From contig NZ_AP022847.1 of the NCBI RefSeq assembly GCF_015100395.1, positions 1,750,003-1,774,002 on the forward strand: a DNA stretch of 24,000 nucleotides. The letters are read 5' to 3'. Positions 6,298 through 22,545 of the stretch are shown here, in pieces (within the stretch, counting starts at the first letter, position 1; the number at the start of each line of letters is the position of its first letter). The notes below the pieces were generated by a model that did no database searches, was not told the DNA's origin, and was given only the letters and a program-made list of their open reading frames with translations. The DNA comes from Nitrosophilus alvini. GTDB lineage: Bacteria > Campylobacterota > Campylobacteria > Campylobacterales > Nitratiruptoraceae. A program made the position numbers and the translations under genes.

Positions 6298-7056
6298 ATG
6301 GAAAAAGAAAAATACAAAAAAGAACTGTACCATCTGCAGGTGGAGCTTGTTAAATTTCAGCGCCACGTTATCAATAACGACATAAAAGTATGTGTGCTTA
6401 TCGAAGGCAGAGACGCGGCAGGAAAAGACGGAACGATAAAAAGGTTTACCGAACATATGAGTCCGAGAGATACAAGAATAGTCGCACTGGGAAAACCGAC
6501 GGAAATCGATAAAAAATACTGGTATTTTCAAAGATATATTCATTATCTGCCAAGAGGCGGGGAGATAGTCTTTTTCAACCGCAGCTGGTACAACAGAGCG
6601 GGTGTGGAAAAAGTGATGGGTTTTTGCACAAAAAAGCAGTATGAAAAATTTATGGAGCAGGTTCCCAATTTCGAACATCTCCTTGTTCACGACGGAATGC
6701 TGTTTTTCAAATACTATCTTGATATAAGCAAAGAAGAGCAGAAAAGAAGACTCGAAGAGAGGAAAAAAAATCCCTTGAAGCAGTGGAAATTGAGTCCCAT
6801 AGATGATATGGCACAAAAACTGTGGAAAGAGTATTCTCTGGCACGAGATGAGATGTTTTCAATGACACATTTTGCATATGCTCCCTGGACGATAGTGAGA
6901 GCCGATGACAAAAAAAATGCGAGACTCAATATCATAAAAAATTTTCTAAGCAGAGTAGACTACCCCGAAAAAGATGAAAAAATCTGCATTTTTGACCCAA
7001 ATACGGTTTTTGACTTTGATATAAGCTGTTATGAGAAAGGAATGATTGCTCCTTAA
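6298..7056 (+). CDS. ppk2: Polyphosphate kinase 2 (single-domain PPK2), copy 1
   Basis: PPK2 P-loop GRDAAGKDGTIKRFTEHMSPR (from nt 6406) plus conserved blocks FFNRSWYNRAGVE and NPLKQWKLSPID. GAGGTG SD upstream of the ATG. About half the residues are identical to the second PPK2 at 15344..16255, by eye. Confidence 0.9.
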   Translation: MEKEKYKKELYHLQVELVKFQRHVINNDIKVCVLIEGRDAAGKDGTIKRFTEHMSPRDTRIVALGKPTEIDKKYWYFQRYIHYLPRGGEIVFFNRSWYNRAGVEKVMGFCTKKQYEKFMEQVPNFEHLLVHDGMLFFKYYLDISKEEQKRRLEERKKNPLKQWKLSPIDDMAQKLWKEYSLARDEMFSMTHFAYAPWTIVRADDKKNARLNIIKNFLSRVDYPEKDEKICIFDPNTVFDFDISCYEKGMIAP

Positions 7057-10170: not shown

Positions 10171-11073
10171 TTGCATAATTTGGAAAATTTTTTATCTTTT
10201 GAAATAGGAAAAATAAAAAGCGATAACCTTCACGGAGCCTCGTACCTGACAAAAAAGTGTGCAGAACTTATAATATTTTTGGCAAAAAAAGATACAAAAC
10301 CGGATATTTTGCAAAAAGCCGCCGTTAAACTTGCAGGCGCAAGACCGATGATGGCATCCATTTTCTCTTTTGCAAATTCTCTTCTTTTTTTACTTGACAA
10401 ACACCCGAAAAAAGAGAAGATCATAAGCTTTTGCAATGAGTTTATCAAAAAATATAATCAAGCTGCTCAAACATCCTCCTCAAACGGAGCAGAACTGATA
10501 TCTTCCGGTGATACTTTATTGACTCACTCTTTCAGCTCCATCGTTTTTGATGCACTTAAGAGAGCCAAATATTCGGGAAAAGACTTCAAAGTAATATGTA
10601 CAGAATCAAGACCAGCTTGTGAGGGAGTCAAACTAGCGGAAGAACTTTGTAAAATAGGGATAAAAACAACTCTCATTACAGATGCCGCAGCTCCTTTTAT
10701 GACAAAAAAGATATCTTTTGTTCTTATCGGTGCAGACGGAACAGGAAATTTCGGTCTGGTACACAAAATAGGTACATATGGAATTGCTCTTTGTGCAAAA
10801 GACAACGGTAAAAAAGTTATATCTTTATCGACTTCTCAAAAGTTTTGGCCATACAGTCTCAAACCCCCCTTGGAGCCTCTTAAAAACAGAAATGAAATAG
10901 TAAATAACGATTGTTTAGATGTTATAAATATCTATTTTGATTTTACGCCTCTGCATCTCATAGACGCCATCTCAACCGAGAACGGGTTTCTTGGTGCAGA
11001 TGAGGTGCAAAAACTGTGTAAAAAAATAGAAATACATACTCTTTTAAAGGATAAATATGCTGATAGATTTTAA
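10171..11073 (+). CDS. eIF-2B alpha/beta/delta-family protein (ribose-1,5-bisphosphate / methylthioribose-1-phosphate isomerase-like)
   Basis: Family-typical blocks: LLTHSFSSIV, VICTESRPACEGVKLAEEL, ITDAA, VLIGADGTGNFGLVHKIGTYGIALCAK. TTG start with GGAG 6-7 nt upstream. Substrate specificity cannot be assigned by eye. Confidence 0.7.
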   Translation: MHNLENFLSFEIGKIKSDNLHGASYLTKKCAELIIFLAKKDTKPDILQKAAVKLAGARPMMASIFSFANSLLFLLDKHPKKEKIISFCNEFIKKYNQAAQTSSSNGAELISSGDTLLTHSFSSIVFDALKRAKYSGKDFKVICTESRPACEGVKLAEELCKIGIKTTLITDAAAPFMTKKISFVLIGADGTGNFGLVHKIGTYGIALCAKDNGKKVISLSTSQKFWPYSLKPPLEPLKNRNEIVNNDCLDVINIYFDFTPLHLIDAISTENGFLGADEVQKLCKKIEIHTLLKDKYADRF

Positions 11074-14261: not shown

Positions 14262-14604
14262 AATTTTCATGCTTTTAATATTCGCTGTCTCCATATTCGC
14301 CGGTGAAGCGGACGTAAAAAATGTAAATGTAGAAAAAATTTCCAAAAACACCTATAATTTTCACGTTACCGTAAAACACAGTGATGAAGGGCAAAAACAT
14401 TATGCAGACAGATGGGAAATACTTGACGAAAATGGAGAAGTCCTTGCTATAAGAATACTACACCATCCGCATATAGATGAACAACCTTTTACTCGCTCTA
14501 TGTATGATGTAGAACTACCCAAAGATGTTAAAGAAGTAAAAATCAGAGCACATGATCTTATTCACGGATACGGGGGTGAGGAGAAGAGTATAAAACTCCC
14601 CTAA
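14248..14604 (+). CDS. Small secreted protein, paralogue B (His-rich HHPHxDEQPFTRS motif)
   Basis: Signal peptide MKLNRIFMLLIFAVSIFA. Conserved KHSDEGQKHYADRWEILDENG, HHPHIDEQPFTRS (nt 14461-14499) and RAHDLIHGYGG. ATG 14248 is better spaced from AGGA than ATG 14239 of the ORF track; either start overlaps the end of paralogue A. Confidence 0.7.
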   Translation: MKLNRIFMLLIFAVSIFAGEADVKNVNVEKISKNTYNFHVTVKHSDEGQKHYADRWEILDENGEVLAIRILHHPHIDEQPFTRSMYDVELPKDVKEVKIRAHDLIHGYGGEEKSIKLP

Positions 14605-15287
14605 TCCATCCTTCTTACATCATGAAACTCTCCGCTTTCATATTTTAACAGTTTCACAAAAGTCTCTATCAACATCTTTGCGCTCTCCTCGGGCGAAAGC
14701 TTTGGACTCTCTTTGAGTCTTTTGACAGAAGGATACTTCTCTTCATCTATATTTTCAAGTATGTGACCAAGCATAGGTGTGGCAACTAGCCCCGGGGCAA
14801 GCGCACTTAAATGTGTATTTGACATTTCACGGGCATAAAGTTTTATCAGCATATTTAGTGCAGCTTTGCTGATACTATATCCACTCCAGCCTCTGCTGCC
14901 GTTTACCGCAGCTCCACTGGATATCGCGACTACCTGCTTTATATTTATATTTTTAAAAAAATCAAGAATAACTTTATTTGACCATACATTCAAATCCATA
15001 ACGGTTTTCAGCTCATACAGACTCGTTTCGCTCATATCTTTTATGTCACCAAGCATCCCCGCATTAAGTATGGCTATATCAATACACTCAGGCAGTAGTT
15101 CCAAAAGTTCTTTTTCTATTTTTTCGTGAGCGAAAAGATCCAATCTTCTAAAATACAGGTTATCTTCATTTTCCAAAGTCTTTGGTTTGTAACGGCCAAG
15201 AGCGTATACCTCATCTCCGCGCTTGAGATACTCTTTTGCCAAAGCTTCCCCAATACCGGAACCTATCCCTGTTATAAAAACTCTCAT
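14601..15287 (-). CDS. Short-chain dehydrogenase/reductase (SDR) family oxidoreductase
   Basis: Rossmann motif ITGIGSGIGEALA, NAG motif (LNAGML), catalytic Ser (ISSGAA) and YSISK (YxxxK). Start set to ATG 15287 (MRVFITG..., with AAGGAAAG upstream) rather than 15308. Confidence 0.85.
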   Translation of the reverse strand: MRVFITGIGSGIGEALAKEYLKRGDEVYALGRYKPKTLENEDNLYFRRLDLFAHEKIEKELLELLPECIDIAILNAGMLGDIKDMSETSLYELKTVMDLNVWSNKVILDFFKNINIKQVVAISSGAAVNGSRGWSGYSISKAALNMLIKLYAREMSNTHLSALAPGLVATPMLGHILENIDEEKYPSVKRLKESPKLSPEESAKMLIETFVKLLKYESGEFHDVRRMD

Positions 15288-15343
15288 TCTTCTTTCCTTT
15301 AATATCATAGTTTGTTATTGATTAAACGATATCTTTCCCAAAC

Positions 15344-16255
15344 TCAGGCATCTATCTGAATGCTTCTTCTATGATATCTCTGAACTATATCAGGGTCAGG
15401 ATGCAAAGAAGTCCTTGATTTCTCTTTTCCATCATACGGAATCTGCGACAAGACATATCTTATGGATTCAAGTCTTGCCAGTTTTTTGTTATTGGAATTC
15501 ACTATAATCCAAGGACTATAGGTTGTATGTGTTTTTGAAAACATCTCTTCTTTGTAAAAAGTGATTTTATCCCATAGTTTCTGTGCCTTAATATCAACGG
15601 AACTCAATTTCCATTGCTTCAAAGGATTTTTCATCCTCTCTTCAAATCTTCTTTTCTGGGTCTCTTTTGAAATACTGAACCAGAACTTTATCATAATTAT
15701 TCCGTCATCAATGAGTGCATGCTCAATTTCTGGCACCTCTTTGATAAACTTTTCATACTGTTCTTGGGTGCAAAAGCCAAACGCAGGTTCAACTATAGCT
15801 CGGTTGTACCAGCTTCTGTCGAAAAAAACAATTTCACCCGGATTTGGGAGATGTTTAAAATATCTTTGAAAATAGAACTGGCCCGCTTCCACTTCAGAAG
15901 GTTTAGGAAGGGCTACGACTCTGTATTTTCTGGGATTCAAATGTTCGGTAAATCTTTTTATAGCTCCACCTTTTCCTGCGGCATCTCTTCCCTCAAAAAT
16001 AATCATAAGTCTTTTTTTATTTTCATATATCCAGTTTTGCATCTTTATAAGCTCAATCTGCAGCCTTTTTAACTCCTCTTCGTATTCAACTTCTCTTAAC
16101 GCTTTTGAAATCTTTTTCTTTTTAACTAAAAGCTTCAGACCCGTTTTTGTTCTAAGCTTATGAATCTTATCTTCCAAAGATTCAAGTTTTGCTTTGAGCT
16201 CTGGCTCACTGATTCTCTCTTTTAAAAAATATAAATCCTCATACAAAGTTTCCAT
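15344..16255 (-). CDS. ppk2: Polyphosphate kinase 2, copy 2, with a roughly 60-aa N-terminal coiled-coil-like extension
   Basis: P-loop GRDAAGKGGAIKRFTEHLNPR plus FFDRSWYNRAIVE and NPLKQWKLSSVD. ATG 16255 is preceded by AAGGAG inside the end of rgy, and the CDS overlaps the rgy stop by 17 nt. Confidence 0.9.
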   Translation of the reverse strand: METLYEDLYFLKERISEPELKAKLESLEDKIHKLRTKTGLKLLVKKKKISKALREVEYEEELKRLQIELIKMQNWIYENKKRLMIIFEGRDAAGKGGAIKRFTEHLNPRKYRVVALPKPSEVEAGQFYFQRYFKHLPNPGEIVFFDRSWYNRAIVEPAFGFCTQEQYEKFIKEVPEIEHALIDDGIIMIKFWFSISKETQKRRFEERMKNPLKQWKLSSVDIKAQKLWDKITFYKEEMFSKTHTTYSPWIIVNSNNKKLARLESIRYVLSQIPYDGKEKSRTSLHPDPDIVQRYHRRSIQIDA

Positions 16256-19200
16256 GTATCTCCTTCTTTATCTTTTCATATAGGTCTTTTAATATCTGTT
16301 GATAATCTGCCTCTTTATTTTCAATTTTATCCATTAATTCTTCTAACTCTTTTGTATATCTCTCATTCACAAACTCATAAATTTGAGGGACGCTTTTTAA
16401 AGTTCCATAAACTTTTTTACCCAAATTTGTGGCAAATATAAAACCGTTTTTTTGATAGACGTATCTTCTTTCAAAGAGTCTTTGAATGATTATGGCATAA
16501 GTTGAAGGCCTTCCTATACCTTTTTCTTTCATCTGCTGAATTAGCGTAGCAAAACTGAATCTAGGAGTTTTTGGTTTTGTAAATTTCTCTTTTTCTGCTA
16601 TTTTCATACACCCTATATCAATTTTATATGTCTCGATAGGCAAAATTTTGTTAAAACCATCTTTGACGATCTTTTTTATAAATGAAAAGTCCGTTCTTTT
16701 ATCTTCAAAAATAGCCTCAGCTTCAACTTTTTCTACTTCACACTCTCTCATTTGTGAAGCTATAAATTCTTTAAAAATAAGATCGTAAAGTTTTAAATGA
16801 TTTTGAGTTATAGTTTTTTGTCCATTTATTTGCAGATACTCTTTCAAATCATCAACATCCATAGGCTTTGTAGGTCTTATACACTCATGTGCGCCCTCTT
16901 TGGTTTTAAAACTTCTTGGAGAAAAAAACTCCTTTCCAAAATTTTGTTCAATGTACTCTTTTGCAACATTTATCCCCGCACTTGAAACTCTGATAGAGTC
17001 CGTTCTATGATATGTTATAAATCCTGCTTCAAAAAGGTCTTGTGCGAGCTGCATTGTAAATTTTGGAGAAAATTTCAGTTCATTTGAAGCATTAAAAAGC
17101 ATAGTATCTGTTGAAAAAGGTTTTTTAAAAAGTTTGGATTTTTCTATTTTTTTATATTTTATCTCTATCTCATCTATTTTTTCAAAAAACTCATTTTGCT
17201 TATGAAGATCTTCAAAAACAAAATCTATATCAAAACCTTCAACTTTAACTCTTACAATATAATCTTTTTCCTTTACCTCATCCTCTCTTTTTACTATCCA
17301 TTCTAATACCGCACTTTGGACTCTTCCGGCACTTAAAGTCTTTCTGTTAAACTTTTTTTGTAAAAATTGCGATATCTCAAACCCTATCCATCTATCTGCA
17401 ATTCTCCTTACTAGCTGAGCTTTTACTAGATCTTCATCTATCTGCCTTGGTCTCTCTTGAGCCTCTTCTATCGCTCTTTTAGTAATTTCATGAAACTCTG
17501 CTCTTTTAATATTTGAGTTGAAAATTTTTGAGTTTAGATATATATCAAACCCTATCTTTTCTCCTTCAATATCAGGATCAGTCGCTATTAAAATCTCTTT
17601 TACCTCTAAATCCAACTCCCTTAAAGCTTTGATTATATCCATCCTGCTCTCATCAATCACTTCATATTCGGCAACAAATACACTATTTTTTAAAACACCG
17701 TGGAATCCATCTTCTTTATTTAGATCAAAAACATGCCCCTTTGATGCAGCAATATTTAAAATTCTGTTTTTTGTGACAATCTCAAAAACTTCCATATTTT
17801 TAATTTTTCTTTTTATAGGTTTCCCATAAAAAGATGCAATAGTCCTTGCTTTATTTGGAGATTCGACTATCATAAAAGTTGTTTTAAAAAGATCTTTTTC
17901 CCCTTCCAACTCCCCTTTTAAAGCTTTTTTTACAAGCTCTCTGTCTTTATCAACCTTTTCAATGATTTTTTCTAAATCAACCTCTTTAATATCTTTAAAC
18001 TCTATCTCTTCGCTAAACCATCTTACTTTCTTTTTAAGGGAGTTAAATGCCTTTTCCTCATCTACCAGTATAAGAGACAAACCTTTTGTAAGTCCTCCCA
18101 CATAAAGCCTGCTAGTTCTTCCGCTGGCTTGAATATATCCAGTAACATCGGCAGTGACAACACTAAAACCGTTTTTGTTTCTCTTTAAAAAGATATCCGG
18201 TGAACTATCGATTTTTTTTATCAGATCTTCATTTAACAGGGAATTTACAAAATTTAAAATCTTTTCTATTCTCTTTTTTGCATTTTCGTTTAGTTTTTCA
18301 CTTTTTATATAAAAAACTTTTTTTAGATAGTTAATATACGAAGAGATTTTAATAACTTTTTCTTCATCAAGATATTTTTTAAAAAAAGGAAACAGCAGAA
18401 GAAAAAAATAGTATAAATTTGTATGTTTTGTTATATCAAGATTAAATTCCAACTTTGGAACGCCGGCAAATATAGCATATCTAATAGTATCGGGCAGATC
18501 AAAACCTCTTGCCAACGGGTTTTTATAACTTGCAATTCCAACAACTACTAAAATTTCACCTTTTTTAAATTTTTCTATATTTTCTTCATCCAACTCTTCA
18601 TAACCAATTGCCGTTATGGAGTTACTATTTAAAAAAGAGAGGGTCTCCTTTAATCTATCTTTTGTTTCATTTGAAGGAAGAAAAACAAGTCCTCCCTTTC
18701 CAAATTTTTTTATATACTCAATTAAATCCTTTAAAACATTGTCACTTTTTTTATAAACATCTTCAACATTTCTAATTGCAATACTAGGCTTACTTACCTC
18801 AAACCCCAATAGCTCTCTAAAGAGTAAAACTCTTCTGGATTTTGGGTTTGCAGTTGCACTTGATACTATTAAATTCGCTGCTTTTTTTGATGCAATTTTT
18901 TTGATTTCTTCATCTTTTTTATAAAACTCTTCCAACTCTTTTTGTGAAACTTTTCCTTTGGAAAAAAGAGCCCTTTTGTAAACTATAAAATCTAAAGTTT
19001 TTTGGATATCCTCCTCGGAAAATCCTAAAAGCATCAGAATTTTATCTATATTTTTCGCACTTTTTAAAATACTATCCACATCATCAACAAAAACAAAATC
19101 AAACTCTTTGGGCAAAAGCTCAAAATTTTTATACAAAAACATTGTTGTAGTGATAAGTATCTTAAAATCACTGTTTTTAATTTTCTCTTTTAAAAGCTCT

Positions 19201-19676
19201 CTCTCTTTTTGGGAAAGCTTTGAATCATAAAATAAAACATCATCTTTTTTAGTACCAAAAGTTAAAAGCTTTTCATATGCTTGATTCGCCAAAAGATGTG
19301 TTGGAAAGATAATATAGCTCTTTTTATCTTTATTCGCCAAATATGAAGAGAGAATTAAACCAAATGTTGTTTTTCCGACTCCAGTGGGGGCCAAAAGGGC
19401 ATAAGAGATATTTAAAAAAAACCTTTTGATCCAGCTCTCTTGGATCTCTCGTAAATCATAACCTAAAATTTTTTTAAAATACTCTTTGAAATTTTCAACC
19501 TCCTTTTTAAGAGAGCAAACTTTTAAAAATTCGCCCTCTTTTAAAACTGAACACAGCTGATCCTGCGGAACCTCTATTTCTAGACAATTTTTACAGGAAA
19601 GCCCTTTATACAACCTGTCACTATCTATATCTTTACCACAATTTGGACACATTCCTTTATAGATCAAAGGTATCAA
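16239..19676 (-). CDS. rgy: Reverse gyrase (SF2 helicase-like domain fused to type IA topoisomerase)
   Basis: N-terminal Zn finger CPNCG-x14-CKNC. Helicase motifs: APTGVGKTT (nt 19365-19391), VDDVD, SSAT, QASGRTSR. TOPRIM: IVESPNKA (Glu codon 17862-17864) and DPDIEGE. Topoisomerase IA active site ITYHRTDS (Tyr889 codon 17010-17012). 1145 aa. The TTG start at 19676 gives MIPLIYKGMCPNCG, an N-terminus like those I recall from archaeal reverse gyrases. Confidence 0.97.
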   Translation of the reverse strand: MIPLIYKGMCPNCGKDIDSDRLYKGLSCKNCLEIEVPQDQLCSVLKEGEFLKVCSLKKEVENFKEYFKKILGYDLREIQESWIKRFFLNISYALLAPTGVGKTTFGLILSSYLANKDKKSYIIFPTHLLANQAYEKLLTFGTKKDDVLFYDSKLSQKERELLKEKIKNSDFKILITTTMFLYKNFELLPKEFDFVFVDDVDSILKSAKNIDKILMLLGFSEEDIQKTLDFIVYKRALFSKGKVSQKELEEFYKKDEEIKKIASKKAANLIVSSATANPKSRRVLLFRELLGFEVSKPSIAIRNVEDVYKKSDNVLKDLIEYIKKFGKGGLVFLPSNETKDRLKETLSFLNSNSITAIGYEELDEENIEKFKKGEILVVVGIASYKNPLARGFDLPDTIRYAIFAGVPKLEFNLDITKHTNLYYFFLLLFPFFKKYLDEEKVIKISSYINYLKKVFYIKSEKLNENAKKRIEKILNFVNSLLNEDLIKKIDSSPDIFLKRNKNGFSVVTADVTGYIQASGRTSRLYVGGLTKGLSLILVDEEKAFNSLKKKVRWFSEEIEFKDIKEVDLEKIIEKVDKDRELVKKALKGELEGEKDLFKTTFMIVESPNKARTIASFYGKPIKRKIKNMEVFEIVTKNRILNIAASKGHVFDLNKEDGFHGVLKNSVFVAEYEVIDESRMDIIKALRELDLEVKEILIATDPDIEGEKIGFDIYLNSKIFNSNIKRAEFHEITKRAIEEAQERPRQIDEDLVKAQLVRRIADRWIGFEISQFLQKKFNRKTLSAGRVQSAVLEWIVKREDEVKEKDYIVRVKVEGFDIDFVFEDLHKQNEFFEKIDEIEIKYKKIEKSKLFKKPFSTDTMLFNASNELKFSPKFTMQLAQDLFEAGFITYHRTDSIRVSSAGINVAKEYIEQNFGKEFFSPRSFKTKEGAHECIRPTKPMDVDDLKEYLQINGQKTITQNHLKLYDLIFKEFIASQMRECEVEKVEAEAIFEDKRTDFSFIKKIVKDGFNKILPIETYKIDIGCMKIAEKEKFTKPKTPRFSFATLIQQMKEKGIGRPSTYAIIIQRLFERRYVYQKNGFIFATNLGKKVYGTLKSVPQIYEFVNERYTKELEELMDKIENKEADYQQILKDLYEKIKKEIHGNFV

Positions 19677-20342
19677 CTATACCCCTTTCATTTGCAGATA
19701 CTCTTTAATCTCATGCAAAAGAATCGCCGGATTTTTTATAGGATATGTTAATCCTTTTGCAACTTCACTTCCGTTTATTCCCTTAATATCCACCTCTTTT
19801 AACATCCTCTCAAGTTCACTTGAATCTACAATCGGATAAGAGATACCTTTGGTATTTTTAAGCACTATATATGCCCATGGGGCTTCACATTTTGCAGCTT
19901 TTATCGCTTCACCGGCAATCTCATGGCAAAAATCGAGCATCGTTTGAGAGTCTTGCCCCTCTTTTACAAGCTTATATGCAAGTTTTGCAACTCCACCTGC
20001 AGTATGAACTTTCATCTCTTTTTTCTCTTCTTCAGTCAGTTCATCAAAATGCTCTATCTTATATATTGCTGCATCAGGATCTGCTCTTAGGATATTTCTA
20101 ACCGTATTTCTGGTAAGTCCCACATAATCGGCTATATCATCCTCCGTTTTTAGATACTCCTCTCTTAAAACTATTGCAAAAGCAGCCCTGGCAAGAGATG
20201 GAAGCCAAGTAAGAGTTCTAAACTCTGTAAGTTTTTTTAACCCACCAAGAAGATCTATAGATTTGTAAAAAACTCTCTCTACCAATCTCTCTAATCCTTT
20301 TTCATCTATATCAAGCCCCGTTCCGGTCAGTATAATCGCCAT
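19677..20342 (-). CDS. Uncharacterised helix-turn-helix protein, translationally abutted to rgy
   Basis: Clear HTH at aa 66-86 (TEDDIADYVGLTRNTVRNILR, nt 20085-20147). Strong SD AAGGAGG 6 nt before the ATG. The stop TAG (19677-19679) is followed immediately by the rgy TTG start. I recognise no other motif; it is possibly the thermophile-associated HTH family (COG1318-like), from recollection only. Confidence 0.75.
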   Translation of the reverse strand: MAIILTGTGLDIDEKGLERLVERVFYKSIDLLGGLKKLTEFRTLTWLPSLARAAFAIVLREEYLKTEDDIADYVGLTRNTVRNILRADPDAAIYKIEHFDELTEEEKKEMKVHTAGGVAKLAYKLVKEGQDSQTMLDFCHEIAGEAIKAAKCEAPWAYIVLKNTKGISYPIVDSSELERMLKEVDIKGINGSEVAKGLTYPIKNPAILLHEIKEYLQMKGV

Positions 20343-20360
20343 CTTTTCCTCCTTTTTTAT

Positions 20361-20417
20361 TTAGTGTTGGTGCTGGTGTTAGTGTTGGTATAGCACCTAT
20401 TTTTAACACTAACACTA
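20361..20417. repeat. Interleaved direct/inverted repeat element in the kaiC-like/HTH spacer
   Basis: Direct repeat TTAGTGTTGGT at 20361-20371 and 20379-20389. Perfect 11-bp inverted repeat GTGTTAGTGTT (20376-20386) / AACACTAACAC (20405-20415). Second complementary pair GGTGCT (20369-20374) / AGCACC (20392-20397), interleaved with the first. The heptamer TAGTGTT occurs 4 times (two on the plus strand, two on the minus strand). Confidence 0.85.
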
Positions 20418-20433
20418 TCACTCTTCCAACTAA

Positions 20434-21309
20434 CTACTTCCCAATTGATTCCAAAATCTTAACAATTCCGGTTTCGCTTATCTCCATAAAATGTGTTCTT
20501 GTATCATGTCCGCTCATCCTACATCCATCTATCCTAAAAAGTCTTACCAAATCACCAATATTTGCATTATAAATCCTAGCGGCGTATGCACTTGTTATCA
20601 TCTCCTTCGCCAAAACCATTGTTCCATCAACAATATGGCCCACTGCATACCCCCCGGCAGCTTCTGCACTCAGTTCCTCGTGACCACTTCTTTTTTGAGA
20701 TACAAAAAGTGCCGTTTGATACCATTTTTTCATAAAATTAAAGACTCTTCTAACAATTGCTCTTGCCATCATCTCTCTGTTTTCAAAAAGCCCGGTAACA
20801 GAATCTATAACTGTGTAATTTATTTTATATGTTTTTATTGCATAAGCTAAAGTTGCTAAGAGATCCGGGACATTTTCTCTCAGAGGTGTGTGTGAGGCTG
20901 CATCTATCATAATAATATTATCTTCAAATTTACTAAAATCGTAGCCCATTGCCAATGCTCTATATTTAATTGATGCTATAACAAAATTTGCAGGAGTCTC
21001 AACTGTAATAAAAGCTACTTTTTGACCCTTCCTTGCCTGCTCTACTGCAAACTGTTCAACCATTAATGACTTTCCGGTATCATTAACCCCGGTTAAGTTA
21101 AAAACACTATATTTTGGTATCCCTCCAAGAGGCATCTGCTTTAATTTGCCATTTACCTCTTTTACTGTAAAAAAAAGTTCATCAAGTCCTTCAATTCCAG
21201 TTGGAACCCCTTCTAACTCCGGAGCCTTTTCTAAAGCTTTACTTCCAACCAAAACCCCTTCTTTAATAACTTCTGGCTCTTTATAACGAATTTCATCTTC
21301 TTGTGCCAT
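20434..21309 (-). CDS. Single-domain KaiC/RadA-like RecA-superfamily ATPase
   Basis: VPTGIEGLDELF...GGIPKYSVFNLTGVNDTGKS (Walker A at nt 21067-21090). Catalytic-type Glu after beta-2 (AFITVETP). Walker B INYTVIDSVTG. C-terminal KaiC-like block FRIDGCRMSGHDTRTHFMEISETGIVKI. ATG preceded by AAAGGA. Confidence 0.85.
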   Translation of the reverse strand: MAQEDEIRYKEPEVIKEGVLVGSKALEKAPELEGVPTGIEGLDELFFTVKEVNGKLKQMPLGGIPKYSVFNLTGVNDTGKSLMVEQFAVEQARKGQKVAFITVETPANFVIASIKYRALAMGYDFSKFEDNIIMIDAASHTPLRENVPDLLATLAYAIKTYKINYTVIDSVTGLFENREMMARAIVRRVFNFMKKWYQTALFVSQKRSGHEELSAEAAGGYAVGHIVDGTMVLAKEMITSAYAARIYNANIGDLVRLFRIDGCRMSGHDTRTHFMEISETGIVKILESIGK

Positions 21310-21474: not shown

Positions 21475-22545
21475 TCAATCTTCTATATCACTGGCCAATT
21501 TAAAAATATCTTCATATTTATGGGCAAACTCTTTACATCTTTGACAGAGAAGCTCTCCGCTTTTATAAGGAAAAGGTGTTCTGCACTCACGGCATATTTC
21601 AAGTTTGTGTCTTACAAGTTCTTTCCCCCTGTCAAATGCAAACTCAACAAGATCAAACCCCTCTTTGTCACTGACGGCTCCCGGCTTGCATATATCGTTG
21701 CATATACCGCAGGCGATACATTTTCCGCTCATAAACCAGATAGATGTCCCTTCGCTGGCATAAAAAAGGGCATCTGTCGGACAAAATTGTACACATTCGC
21801 CGCAATTGTCGCACAAATCGTAACTTATCTCTTTATCGCGGATAAAGGAGAAGTTTCTGTTGATTTGAGTGTTTTGAATACTCTCAATATTTTGCTTTAT
21901 AGAGTTTTTTAAAATTGTATGTTTGACAGGCACTCTGTTAACGGCGTTTTGCAAAGATTTAAGATCATTGTTTTCTCGTGAAAGCTCTTTTGCCGCCGTA
22001 AAAATTTTCTTGAAAAAGGCTCTTCTTTCTTTATGCTTTTCTCCACTTTCCGTTTTTATAACGGCATCAACACCAAGCGCTTCTATAAAACTTTTCGCTT
22101 CTTCTATCCTCTCGTTTATTGATTCAAAAGTTTTTCCCTCAATATTCAGATTACACTCTGCACAATGCGACAAGTCACATATAATTTCGCCACACCTCAA
22201 AGCACCTGATATAAAGTGGTGAACATCAAAAACACTGAGACACGGCGTCTCTTCCTTGCAGGATAGTTTAAGAGAGTCCTTTTGAGCAGCTTCGACTATA
22301 TAGCTATCAGGGTCAAAAAACTCTACACTCAGCGCTTCGGAAGGGCATACGCCTATACATACGGCACAGTTGGTACATTTGTCTTCAAGAAGCCTGAGTC
22401 TTCCTCTGACAAACCCTATAGCATCTTCGGGACAGATATCCAGGCACTCTTTGCAATCGTTATGAAAGTAGTCGGTTCTTAGACATTTTAGATAGTCAAA
22501 CTCAAAAAGATTTGTATTTTGTTTATAATCAAGACTCATGGCCAA
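21475..22545 (-). CDS. 4Fe-4S ferredoxin-domain protein (two dicluster modules, about four clusters)
   Basis: Cluster motifs: C-x9-CKECLDICP, CTNCAVCIGVCP, CDNCGECVQFCP, CIACGICNDICKP. Also a C-terminal CRECR-x14-CQRC. Start is TTG 22545 or ATG 22539; either overlaps the TorD-like gene end. Confidence 0.85.
   Translation of the reverse strand: MAMSLDYKQNTNLFEFDYLKCLRTDYFHNDCKECLDICPEDAIGFVRGRLRLLEDKCTNCAVCIGVCPSEALSVEFFDPDSYIVEAAQKDSLKLSCKEETPCLSVFDVHHFISGALRCGEIICDLSHCAECNLNIEGKTFESINERIEEAKSFIEALGVDAVIKTESGEKHKERRAFFKKIFTAAKELSRENNDLKSLQNAVNRVPVKHTILKNSIKQNIESIQNTQINRNFSFIRDKEISYDLCDNCGECVQFCPTDALFYASEGTSIWFMSGKCIACGICNDICKPGAVSDKEGFDLVEFAFDRGKELVRHKLEICRECRTPFPYKSGELLCQRCKEFAHKYEDIFKLASDIED

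Follow-up and report, generated by a model that had tools for sequence, protein, structure and literature searches.

Overlap of a long class I polyphosphate kinase 2 gene with the reverse gyrase gene in Nitrosophilus alvini, a gene arrangement restricted to the Nitratiruptoraceae

Introduction

Does the overlap of a polyphosphate kinase 2 (PPK2) gene with a reverse gyrase gene (rgy) mark a working partnership between polyphosphate (polyP) and an ATP-driven topoisomerase, or is it the by-product of gene packing? The question is raised by Nitrosophilus alvini EPR55-1, a hydrogen-oxidising chemolithoautotroph from hydrothermal vents that grows at 50-60 °C (PMC7728183). The window analysed here, a stretch of 24,000 nt of contig NZ_AP022847.1, contains the single rgy gene and both PPK2 genes of the genome; PPK1 and two Ppx/GppA-family genes lie elsewhere. 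One of the PPK2 genes, named ppk2L here for its length, begins within the 3' end of rgy. Below, the products of the locus are assigned, the junction is read in detail, and the linkage is followed through relatives (genomes and loci are cited by G and L numbers, respectively) and through other rgy-bearing lineages.

Results and Discussion

Genes of the locus

The genes that bear on the question are the following.

6298-7056, plus strand: ppk2 copy 1, short class I PPK2 of 252 aa (PF03976, 312.4 bits; TIGR03707, 353 bits)
14601-15308, minus strand: short-chain dehydrogenase/reductase (SDR; PF00106), directly downstream of ppk2L
15344-16255, minus strand: ppk2L, predicted long class I polyphosphate kinase 2 of 303 aa (PF03976, TIGR03707)
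16239-19676, minus strand: rgy, predicted reverse gyrase of 1145 aa with a TTG start (TIGR01054)
19677-20342, minus strand: regulatory-domain protein (near_KaiC_dom; TIGR03879, 127.6 bits), whose stop abuts the rgy start
20434-21309, minus strand: KaiC-like ATPase (thermo_KaiC_2; TIGR03878, 447.7 bits; PF06745), first gene of the cluster

The product of 16239-19676 is firmly predicted to be a reverse gyrase: it scores 1233.7 bits against TIGR01054 (cut-off 471.7; positions 2-1170) and carries zf_Rg, DEAD, Toprim and Topoisom_bac domains, the combination of a zinc finger, an SF2 helicase-like part and a type IA topoisomerase. Copy 1 shares 50-54% identity with ppk2L and has an orthologue in every Nitratiruptoraceae member examined. 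PPK2 is near-universal in the Campylobacterales with or without reverse gyrase, being present in 39 of 41 sampled genomes, against 19 of 41 for rgy. The listed start of the SDR gene is the ATG at 15308; a second ATG at 15287 has a AAGGAAAG motif upstream and the Rossmann motif right after it, and to judge from these signals the second is probably the true start.

ppk2L as a class I PPK2

The ppk2L product matches PF03976 with 314.6 bits (gathering score 22.3) over profile positions 4-228 of 229 and passes the class I equivalog TIGR03707 (350.4 bits, cut-off 301.8). It failed the models for the class alternatives, AMP-phosphotransferase and two-domain, scoring 244 against the 547.65 needed for the two-domain model TIGR03708 and staying below the cut-offs of NF050016 (176.5 vs 800) and TIGR03709 (168.2 vs 247.2). 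Its Walker A motif GRDAAGKGG (G89-G97), the Walker B region DRSWY (D146-R147) and its lid residues R203, R207, K213 and K216 show little or no variation in the orthologue alignment; their roles we take to be those seen in the structures of the Francisella tularensis and Sinorhizobium meliloti enzymes (FtPPK2 and SmPPK2). An AlphaFold2 model, built from a shallow alignment of 11 rows, has a mean pLDDT of 88.1, and the top 15 Foldseek matches to it are all FtPPK2 or SmPPK2, with class II/III enzymes ranking lower. The solved class I structures superpose on the ppk2L core only (TM 0.95 to FtPPK2, about 236 aligned columns). The earlier note on this DNA had left the class of the enzyme to be settled; the TIGR03707 score, the motifs and the closest solved fold agree on class I. 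By sequence and model, ppk2L is an intact class I PPK2 and a predicted polyP:NDP phosphotransferase.

Across the Nitratiruptoraceae ppk2L is 80-88% identical, compared with 46-59% for rgy, a level of conservation that indicates strong purifying selection and, in turn, that ppk2L matters to these organisms.

The N-terminal extension

16100-16255, minus strand: ppk2L codons 1-52, the extension missing from copy 1 (orthologue alignment)

The earlier note had described this region as a charged, coiled-coil-like extension of roughly 60 aa that copy 1 lacks. Its charge and its absence from copy 1 stand; its length comes to about 52 aa, as residue 1 of copy 1 aligns with ppk2L residue 53. Charged residues make up 45% of the extension and 32% of the ppk2L core. 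It is helical as supposed, but AlphaFold2 predicts three short helices (residues 2-14, 18-34 and 37-44; pLDDT 77-89) ahead of a long first core helix, not a single long coiled coil.

A word-indexed search with residues 1-60 matched nine near-identical orthologues, and orthologues encoded in rgy-less genomes (L036, L041, L042) keep it conserved as well. In two-domain PPK2s, the region that it aligns with is the linker between the domains (TIGR03708 positions 230-489; several representatives). Among the 150 best representatives in a library of 1.8 billion proteins are 67 of single-domain size; in 49 of these at least 40 residues precede the core as located by local BLAST (median 64), lengths that metagenomic start calls may somewhat inflate. 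Since the extension is kept in rgy-less orthologues and common among class I homologues (49/67), it is not an rgy-specific docking element, and the suggestion of a docking role is unsupported. Nothing in these alignments links the extension to reverse gyrase; by its distribution it is a feature of a PPK2 subfamily, independent of rgy.

The rgy-ppk2L junction

16239-16255, minus strand: shared rgy 3' end and ppk2L 5' end, 17 nt
16265-16260, minus strand: AAGGAG Shine-Dalgarno-like (SD) motif within the final rgy codons, followed by a 4-nt spacer (ATAC) and the ATG

Direct reading of the minus strand places the ppk2L ATG at 16255-16253, 17 nt ahead of the rgy TGA at 16241-16239, and AAGGAG 4 nt upstream of that ATG inside rgy; both had been reported in the earlier note and both are borne out. 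The same 17-nt overlap occurs in nine relatives (G011, G012, G013, G014, G015, G016, G018, G019 and G021), the overlap is 14 nt in G010, and an AGGAG- or GGGAG-type SD motif occupies the equivalent position in all relatives with the overlap. The recurrence of overlap and upstream AGGAG-type motif in ten other species-level genomes makes the ppk2L start call reliable. An internal TTG start at ppk2L codon 27 was considered and rejected, because residues 1-26 are conserved at the protein level across orthologues.

The layout is one expected of translational coupling, with the upstream stop overlapping the downstream start and the SD motif lying within the upstream ORF, and it is kept in relatives. 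Between 14400 and 21600, promoter-like matches number 25, against 22.6 in shuffled sequences, with nothing convincing between rgy and ppk2L; terminator-like matches number 4, against 3.9 in shuffles, with nothing of the kind at the junction. The junction RNA has a minimum free energy of -9 kcal/mol (z -0.49 against shuffled sequence). The fold is no stabler than those of the shuffles, which makes a structure-based coupling element unlikely.

Two other pairs of co-directional ORFs in the window also overlap by 17 nt, an eIF-2B-family protein and a flavin reductase at 11057-11073, and a TorD-like chaperone and a 4Fe-4S protein at 22529-22545, the latter with a putative TTG start. Overlaps of the 3n+2 class are frequent in the N. 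alvini genome. Given these two further cases within the window, the geometry of the rgy-ppk2L overlap is unremarkable for a compact genome.

Linkage within the Nitratiruptoraceae

Forty relatives were searched for rgy and the long PPK2, and the loci found were then read. The earlier note had allowed that the linkage might be unique to this genome; it is not, as ppk2L directly follows rgy in 12 of the 17 other rgy-bearing genomes of the family, overlapping it in ten. In the two remaining cases the genes are adjacent across spacers of 147 nt (G003) and 208 nt (G002), and in a further genome (G006) a GGDEF/EAL gene on the opposite strand separates them by 3375 nt. The ppk2L spacers of these three genomes carry a TATAAT-like box and an SD motif, and lie as follows on the strand reading ppk2L forward.

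L032, 10815-11024: spacer ahead of non-overlapped ppk2L
L031, 10239-10387: spacer ahead of non-overlapped ppk2L
L033, about 10230-10259: spacer ahead of non-overlapped ppk2L

Ahead of the non-overlapped genes the spacer is short and A-rich, with the TATAAT-like box some 19 nt from the ATG and AAAGGAG as the SD motif. These signals suggest that a non-overlapped ppk2L has its own promoter with a very short leader.

Each gene also occurs without the other, so that their gain and loss have not been joint. The KaiC-like, regulator and rgy genes are present without ppk2L in G004, G008, G017 and G020 (the last 71% complete), and rgy lacks ppk2L in G034 as well; in G017 rgy directly abuts the SDR gene, ppk2L being missing. 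Conversely, ppk2L is found without rgy in G005, G024, G025 and G037. A hydantoinase B gene precedes the ppk2L-SDR pair in G005, and the other three genomes, which belong to three further families of the order, have ppk2L orthologues of 66-71% identity, with unrelated neighbours in G024 and G037. The SDR gene follows ppk2L in G000, G003, G005, G006, G010, G011 and several contigs of metagenome-assembled genomes (MAGs), and it is still at the locus where ppk2L is not (G001, G004, G008 and G017).

In a tree of rgy (FastTree, to be read with caution) the family is a single clade (support 100) with N. alvini on a basal branch, and the genomes without ppk2L fall in two separate places, G004 with G008 and G017 apart. 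Adjacency in the basal branch and most subclades, with gaps in two places, indicates one origin and at least two losses. Relaxed tblastn searches of G004, G008, G017, G034 and G001 returned no ppk2L remnants, so loss cannot be proved from scars.

G001 (L044) and G005 (L036), members of a sister genus, lack both rgy and the KaiC-like module, though close to rgy-bearing species. Reverse gyrase is thus dispensable among these moderate thermophiles and variable at the genus level.

Linkage outside the family

Species-representative genomes were scanned with an rgy alignment, and the best 80 of at least 381 loci were taken with flanks of up to 6 kb. Ten are of the Nitratiruptoraceae type and 70 lie outside the family, in Hydrogenothermaceae, Aquificaceae, Nautiliaceae, Caldisericota, WOR-3, Fervidibacter, Thermotogaceae, Thermodesulfobacteriota and several archaeal groups. 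The 80 are those most similar to the N. alvini rgy, and Sulfolobales-, crenarchaeal and Thermococcales-type genes are thinly covered among them.

None of the 70 outside loci from these best 80 of at least 381 has a PPK2 in its flanks (E up to 0.01), the downstream flank reaching at least 1 kb in 58 of them and at least 3 kb in 45. Five rgy-bearing genomes from five other lineages were searched throughout for PPK2, and none has one. Of 121 Aquificota sampled, 3 have a PPK2: one carries it some 410 kb from rgy on a shared contig, the other two on a contig other than that of rgy. In the archaeal phylum to which a Brockarchaeota MAG belongs, the figure is 2 of 151 genomes. With PPK2 scarce or absent in other rgy-bearing lineages, reverse gyrase works without it in almost all of them. 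The survey of rgy neighbourhoods, which the earlier note had named as the way to examine its proposal, went against it: the adjacency is seen in one family only and did not recur independently in another lineage (0/70; the PPK2 genes of Aquificota are distant from rgy).

Joint arrival of rgy and ppk2L from Aquificota was also considered. It was rejected because Hydrogenothermaceae rgy loci have no PPK2 and because ppk2L orthologues (66-71% identical) occur in other, rgy-less families of the Campylobacterales.

The KaiC-like/regulator/rgy trio

Reverse gyrase and TIGR03878 KaiC-like proteins are markers of thermophiles. The trio of KaiC-like (TIGR03878), regulator (TIGR03879) and rgy genes does not vary among the rgy-bearing Nitratiruptoraceae loci that were read, the TIGR03879 protein always lying between the KaiC-like protein and reverse gyrase. 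The full trio, rgy last, is also present in Persephonella-type Aquificota and in three archaeal MAGs (Ca. Mnemosynella, Hydrothermarchaeota and one uncultured archaeon); in a Caldisericota MAG only the regulator gene lies beside rgy.

Window, 16239-21309, minus strand: trio of N. alvini
L049, L056, L068, L091, L097 and L098: other loci read for the trio

This cross-phylum linkage is much stronger than that of PPK2 and is the more notable side observation. A literature search for KaiC together with reverse gyrase returned one incidental mention, and the linkage of the trio seems hardly covered. Heat shock induces PF1931/PF1932 of Pyrococcus furiosus, a KaiC-domain gene with a regulator beside it (PMC10746257); the two may belong to the same family as the KaiC-like/regulator pair.

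The G+C content of rgy is 0.26-0.33, against 0.36-0.39 in both flanks. Among family members, identities are 46-59% for rgy, 77-87% for the KaiC-like protein, 63-84% for the regulator and 80-88% for ppk2L, and rgy is 54-57% identical to that of Hydrogenothermaceae, about as similar as within the family. These figures point to fast evolution of rgy, or to its exchange within a conserved frame.

Why rgy and ppk2L are adjacent

A pairing limited to one family and dropped by some of its members looks like ordinary operon packing. Our preferred explanation, which we hold to be probably correct, is that ppk2L encodes an ordinary class I PPK2 that shares an inherited operon packing with rgy and has no dedicated biochemical or physical partnership with it. 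Its product would make ATP or GTP from polyP and ADP or GDP as part of the normal polyP toolkit of the Campylobacterales. Most probably, a mobile KaiC-like/regulator/rgy thermophile module was placed immediately upstream of a resident ppk2L-SDR pair in an ancestor of the rgy-bearing lineage of the Nitratiruptoraceae; the spacer would then have been squeezed to the 17-nt overlap, with the ppk2L SD motif inside the last rgy codons. In N. alvini ppk2L would be co-transcribed with rgy, and its translation may start in a coupled manner, helped by ribosomes that terminate on rgy 17 nt downstream. We infer horizontal mobility of the trio from its recurrence in Aquificota and archaea and from an rgy composition distinct from the flanks, and parsimony together with the ppk2L orthologues of other families favours the arrival of the rgy module beside ppk2L over the reverse. 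As a counterpoint, about ten species have kept an overlap of exactly 17 nt together with the SD motif despite the divergence of rgy, which could reflect selection for coupled expression.

That counterpoint is where an alternative begins, namely a heat or stress operon, selected in the family, in which PPK2L regenerates ATP or GTP from polyP while the cell makes reverse gyrase and the KaiC-like ATPase. Besides the overlap and motif conserved in about ten species, it can draw on the co-directional, tightly spaced order of all four genes, on the family descriptions of rgy and TIGR03878 as thermophile markers, and on the PPK1 gene that predicts polyP synthesis. The heat-shock induction of the P. 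furiosus KaiC-domain gene and its regulator (PMC10746257) fits as well. We nevertheless consider it unlikely. None of the 70 outside-family rgy loci (best 80 of at least 381) is linked to PPK2, and the main rgy-bearing phyla almost never have one; within the family, four members keep rgy and the KaiC-like gene without ppk2L, three species have ppk2L behind its own promoter-like spacer, and another class I PPK2 lies 9 kb from it in each case; and no paper was found that pairs reverse gyrase with PPK2 or polyphosphate kinase. The narrower version, in which a Nitratiruptoraceae-only operon recruited PPK2L as an energy source for reverse gyrase and the KaiC-like ATPase once respiratory ATP falls under heat stress, strikes us as decidedly unlikely; were such an operon real, the strict 17-nt overlap would mean selection for stoichiometric co-production. 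Of the proposal in the earlier note, that co-expression supplies NTPs for these proteins, the premise of co-expression survives (12 of 17 linked) while the functional claims are unsupported; supply to reverse gyrase in particular has against it the 0/70 outside loci, the presence of PPK2 in 0/5 genomes and 3/121 Aquificota, and the persistence of each gene alone.

The true functional unit might instead be ppk2L with the SDR gene, rgy being a mere upstream neighbour, and the SDR gene does come right after ppk2L in G000, G003, rgy-less G005, G006, G010, G011 and several MAG contigs. Against this, SDR stays without ppk2L in G001, G004, G008 and G017, is missing next to the orthologues in G024 and G037, which belong to other families, and in G002 lies 3.4 kb from ppk2L; we also know of no pathway that joins a PPK2 to an SDR. 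All of this makes such a unit highly improbable. A physical complex, with the charged extension docking on reverse gyrase or on DNA and giving a local ATP supply, is the least credible of these readings, and we give it almost no weight. The extension is 45% charged, predicted to be helical and conserved within the family, but it is equally conserved in rgy-less genomes (L036, L041, L042), at least 40 pre-core residues are found in 49 of 67 single-domain homologues, and the region aligns with the linker of two-domain PPK2s; moreover, rgy diverges fast (46-59%) while ppk2L is almost fixed, unlike co-evolving partners.

Novelty and meaning

Our literature search found no paper that names reverse gyrase alongside either PPK2 or polyphosphate kinase, so the rgy-ppk2L gene order has probably not been described before. 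The parts are known and the arrangement is unreported; the comparative evidence is against a general link. If coupling were true, reverse gyrase would have its first described accessory partner for energy supply, and the second PPK2 of vent Campylobacterota would gain a physiological role. As a family-restricted operon arrangement, its value is mainly one of annotation, through a reliable start codon and a class assignment for a highly conserved long PPK2. It would also illustrate how a transferred thermophile module can become fused to a resident gene, and the natural ppk2L-plus and ppk2L-minus strains of Nitratiruptor and Nitrosophilus would be a cheap test of any residual functional link.

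Comparison with known systems

Translationally coupled, overlapping cistrons are known in bacterial operons, for example at junctions of the trp operon. The rgy-ppk2L junction resembles these in that the upstream stop lies in or just after the next start and the SD motif is embedded in the upstream coding sequence. In classic coupled cistrons the overlap is 1-4 nt and the products are usually subunits of the same complex, whereas the 17-nt overlap described here joins two enzymes that are unlinked everywhere else.

The best solved relative of ppk2L is the class I enzyme FtPPK2 of F. tularensis (PDB 4YEG, 5LL0, 5LLB), with a phmmer E of 1e-85 over residues 57-291, Foldseek E values of 1e-28 to 3.5e-29, an rmsd of 1.2-1.3 angstroms, 55% identity over the structural alignment and a TM of 0.95 to 5LL0 (normalised by target). 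Both have a single PPK2 domain with Walker A, Walker B and lid; FtPPK2 has about 27 pre-core residues, in contrast to the 52-aa, predicted three-helix extension of ppk2L, which also differs in its host, a chemolithoautotroph living at up to 60 °C, and in its overlap with rgy. SMc02148 of S. meliloti (SmPPK2; PDB 3CZQ, 6DZG), a class I polyP:ADP phosphotransferase, is about 300 aa long like ppk2L, and its core begins near residue 53-55, so that it has an N-terminal extension of its own of about 50 aa. The two proteins are 50% identical (TM 0.75-0.80), but their extensions do not align, the alignment starting at ppk2L residue 51, and the host of SMc02148 is a mesophile without rgy, unlike N. alvini.

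In Campylobacter jejuni and other Campylobacterales, polyP metabolism based on PPK1 and PPK2 is tied to stress survival. N. alvini belongs to the same order and likewise has PPK2 genes together with PPK1 and Ppx genes; unlike in other Campylobacterales, a second, long PPK2 copy stands behind rgy, an arrangement seen only in the Nitratiruptoraceae.
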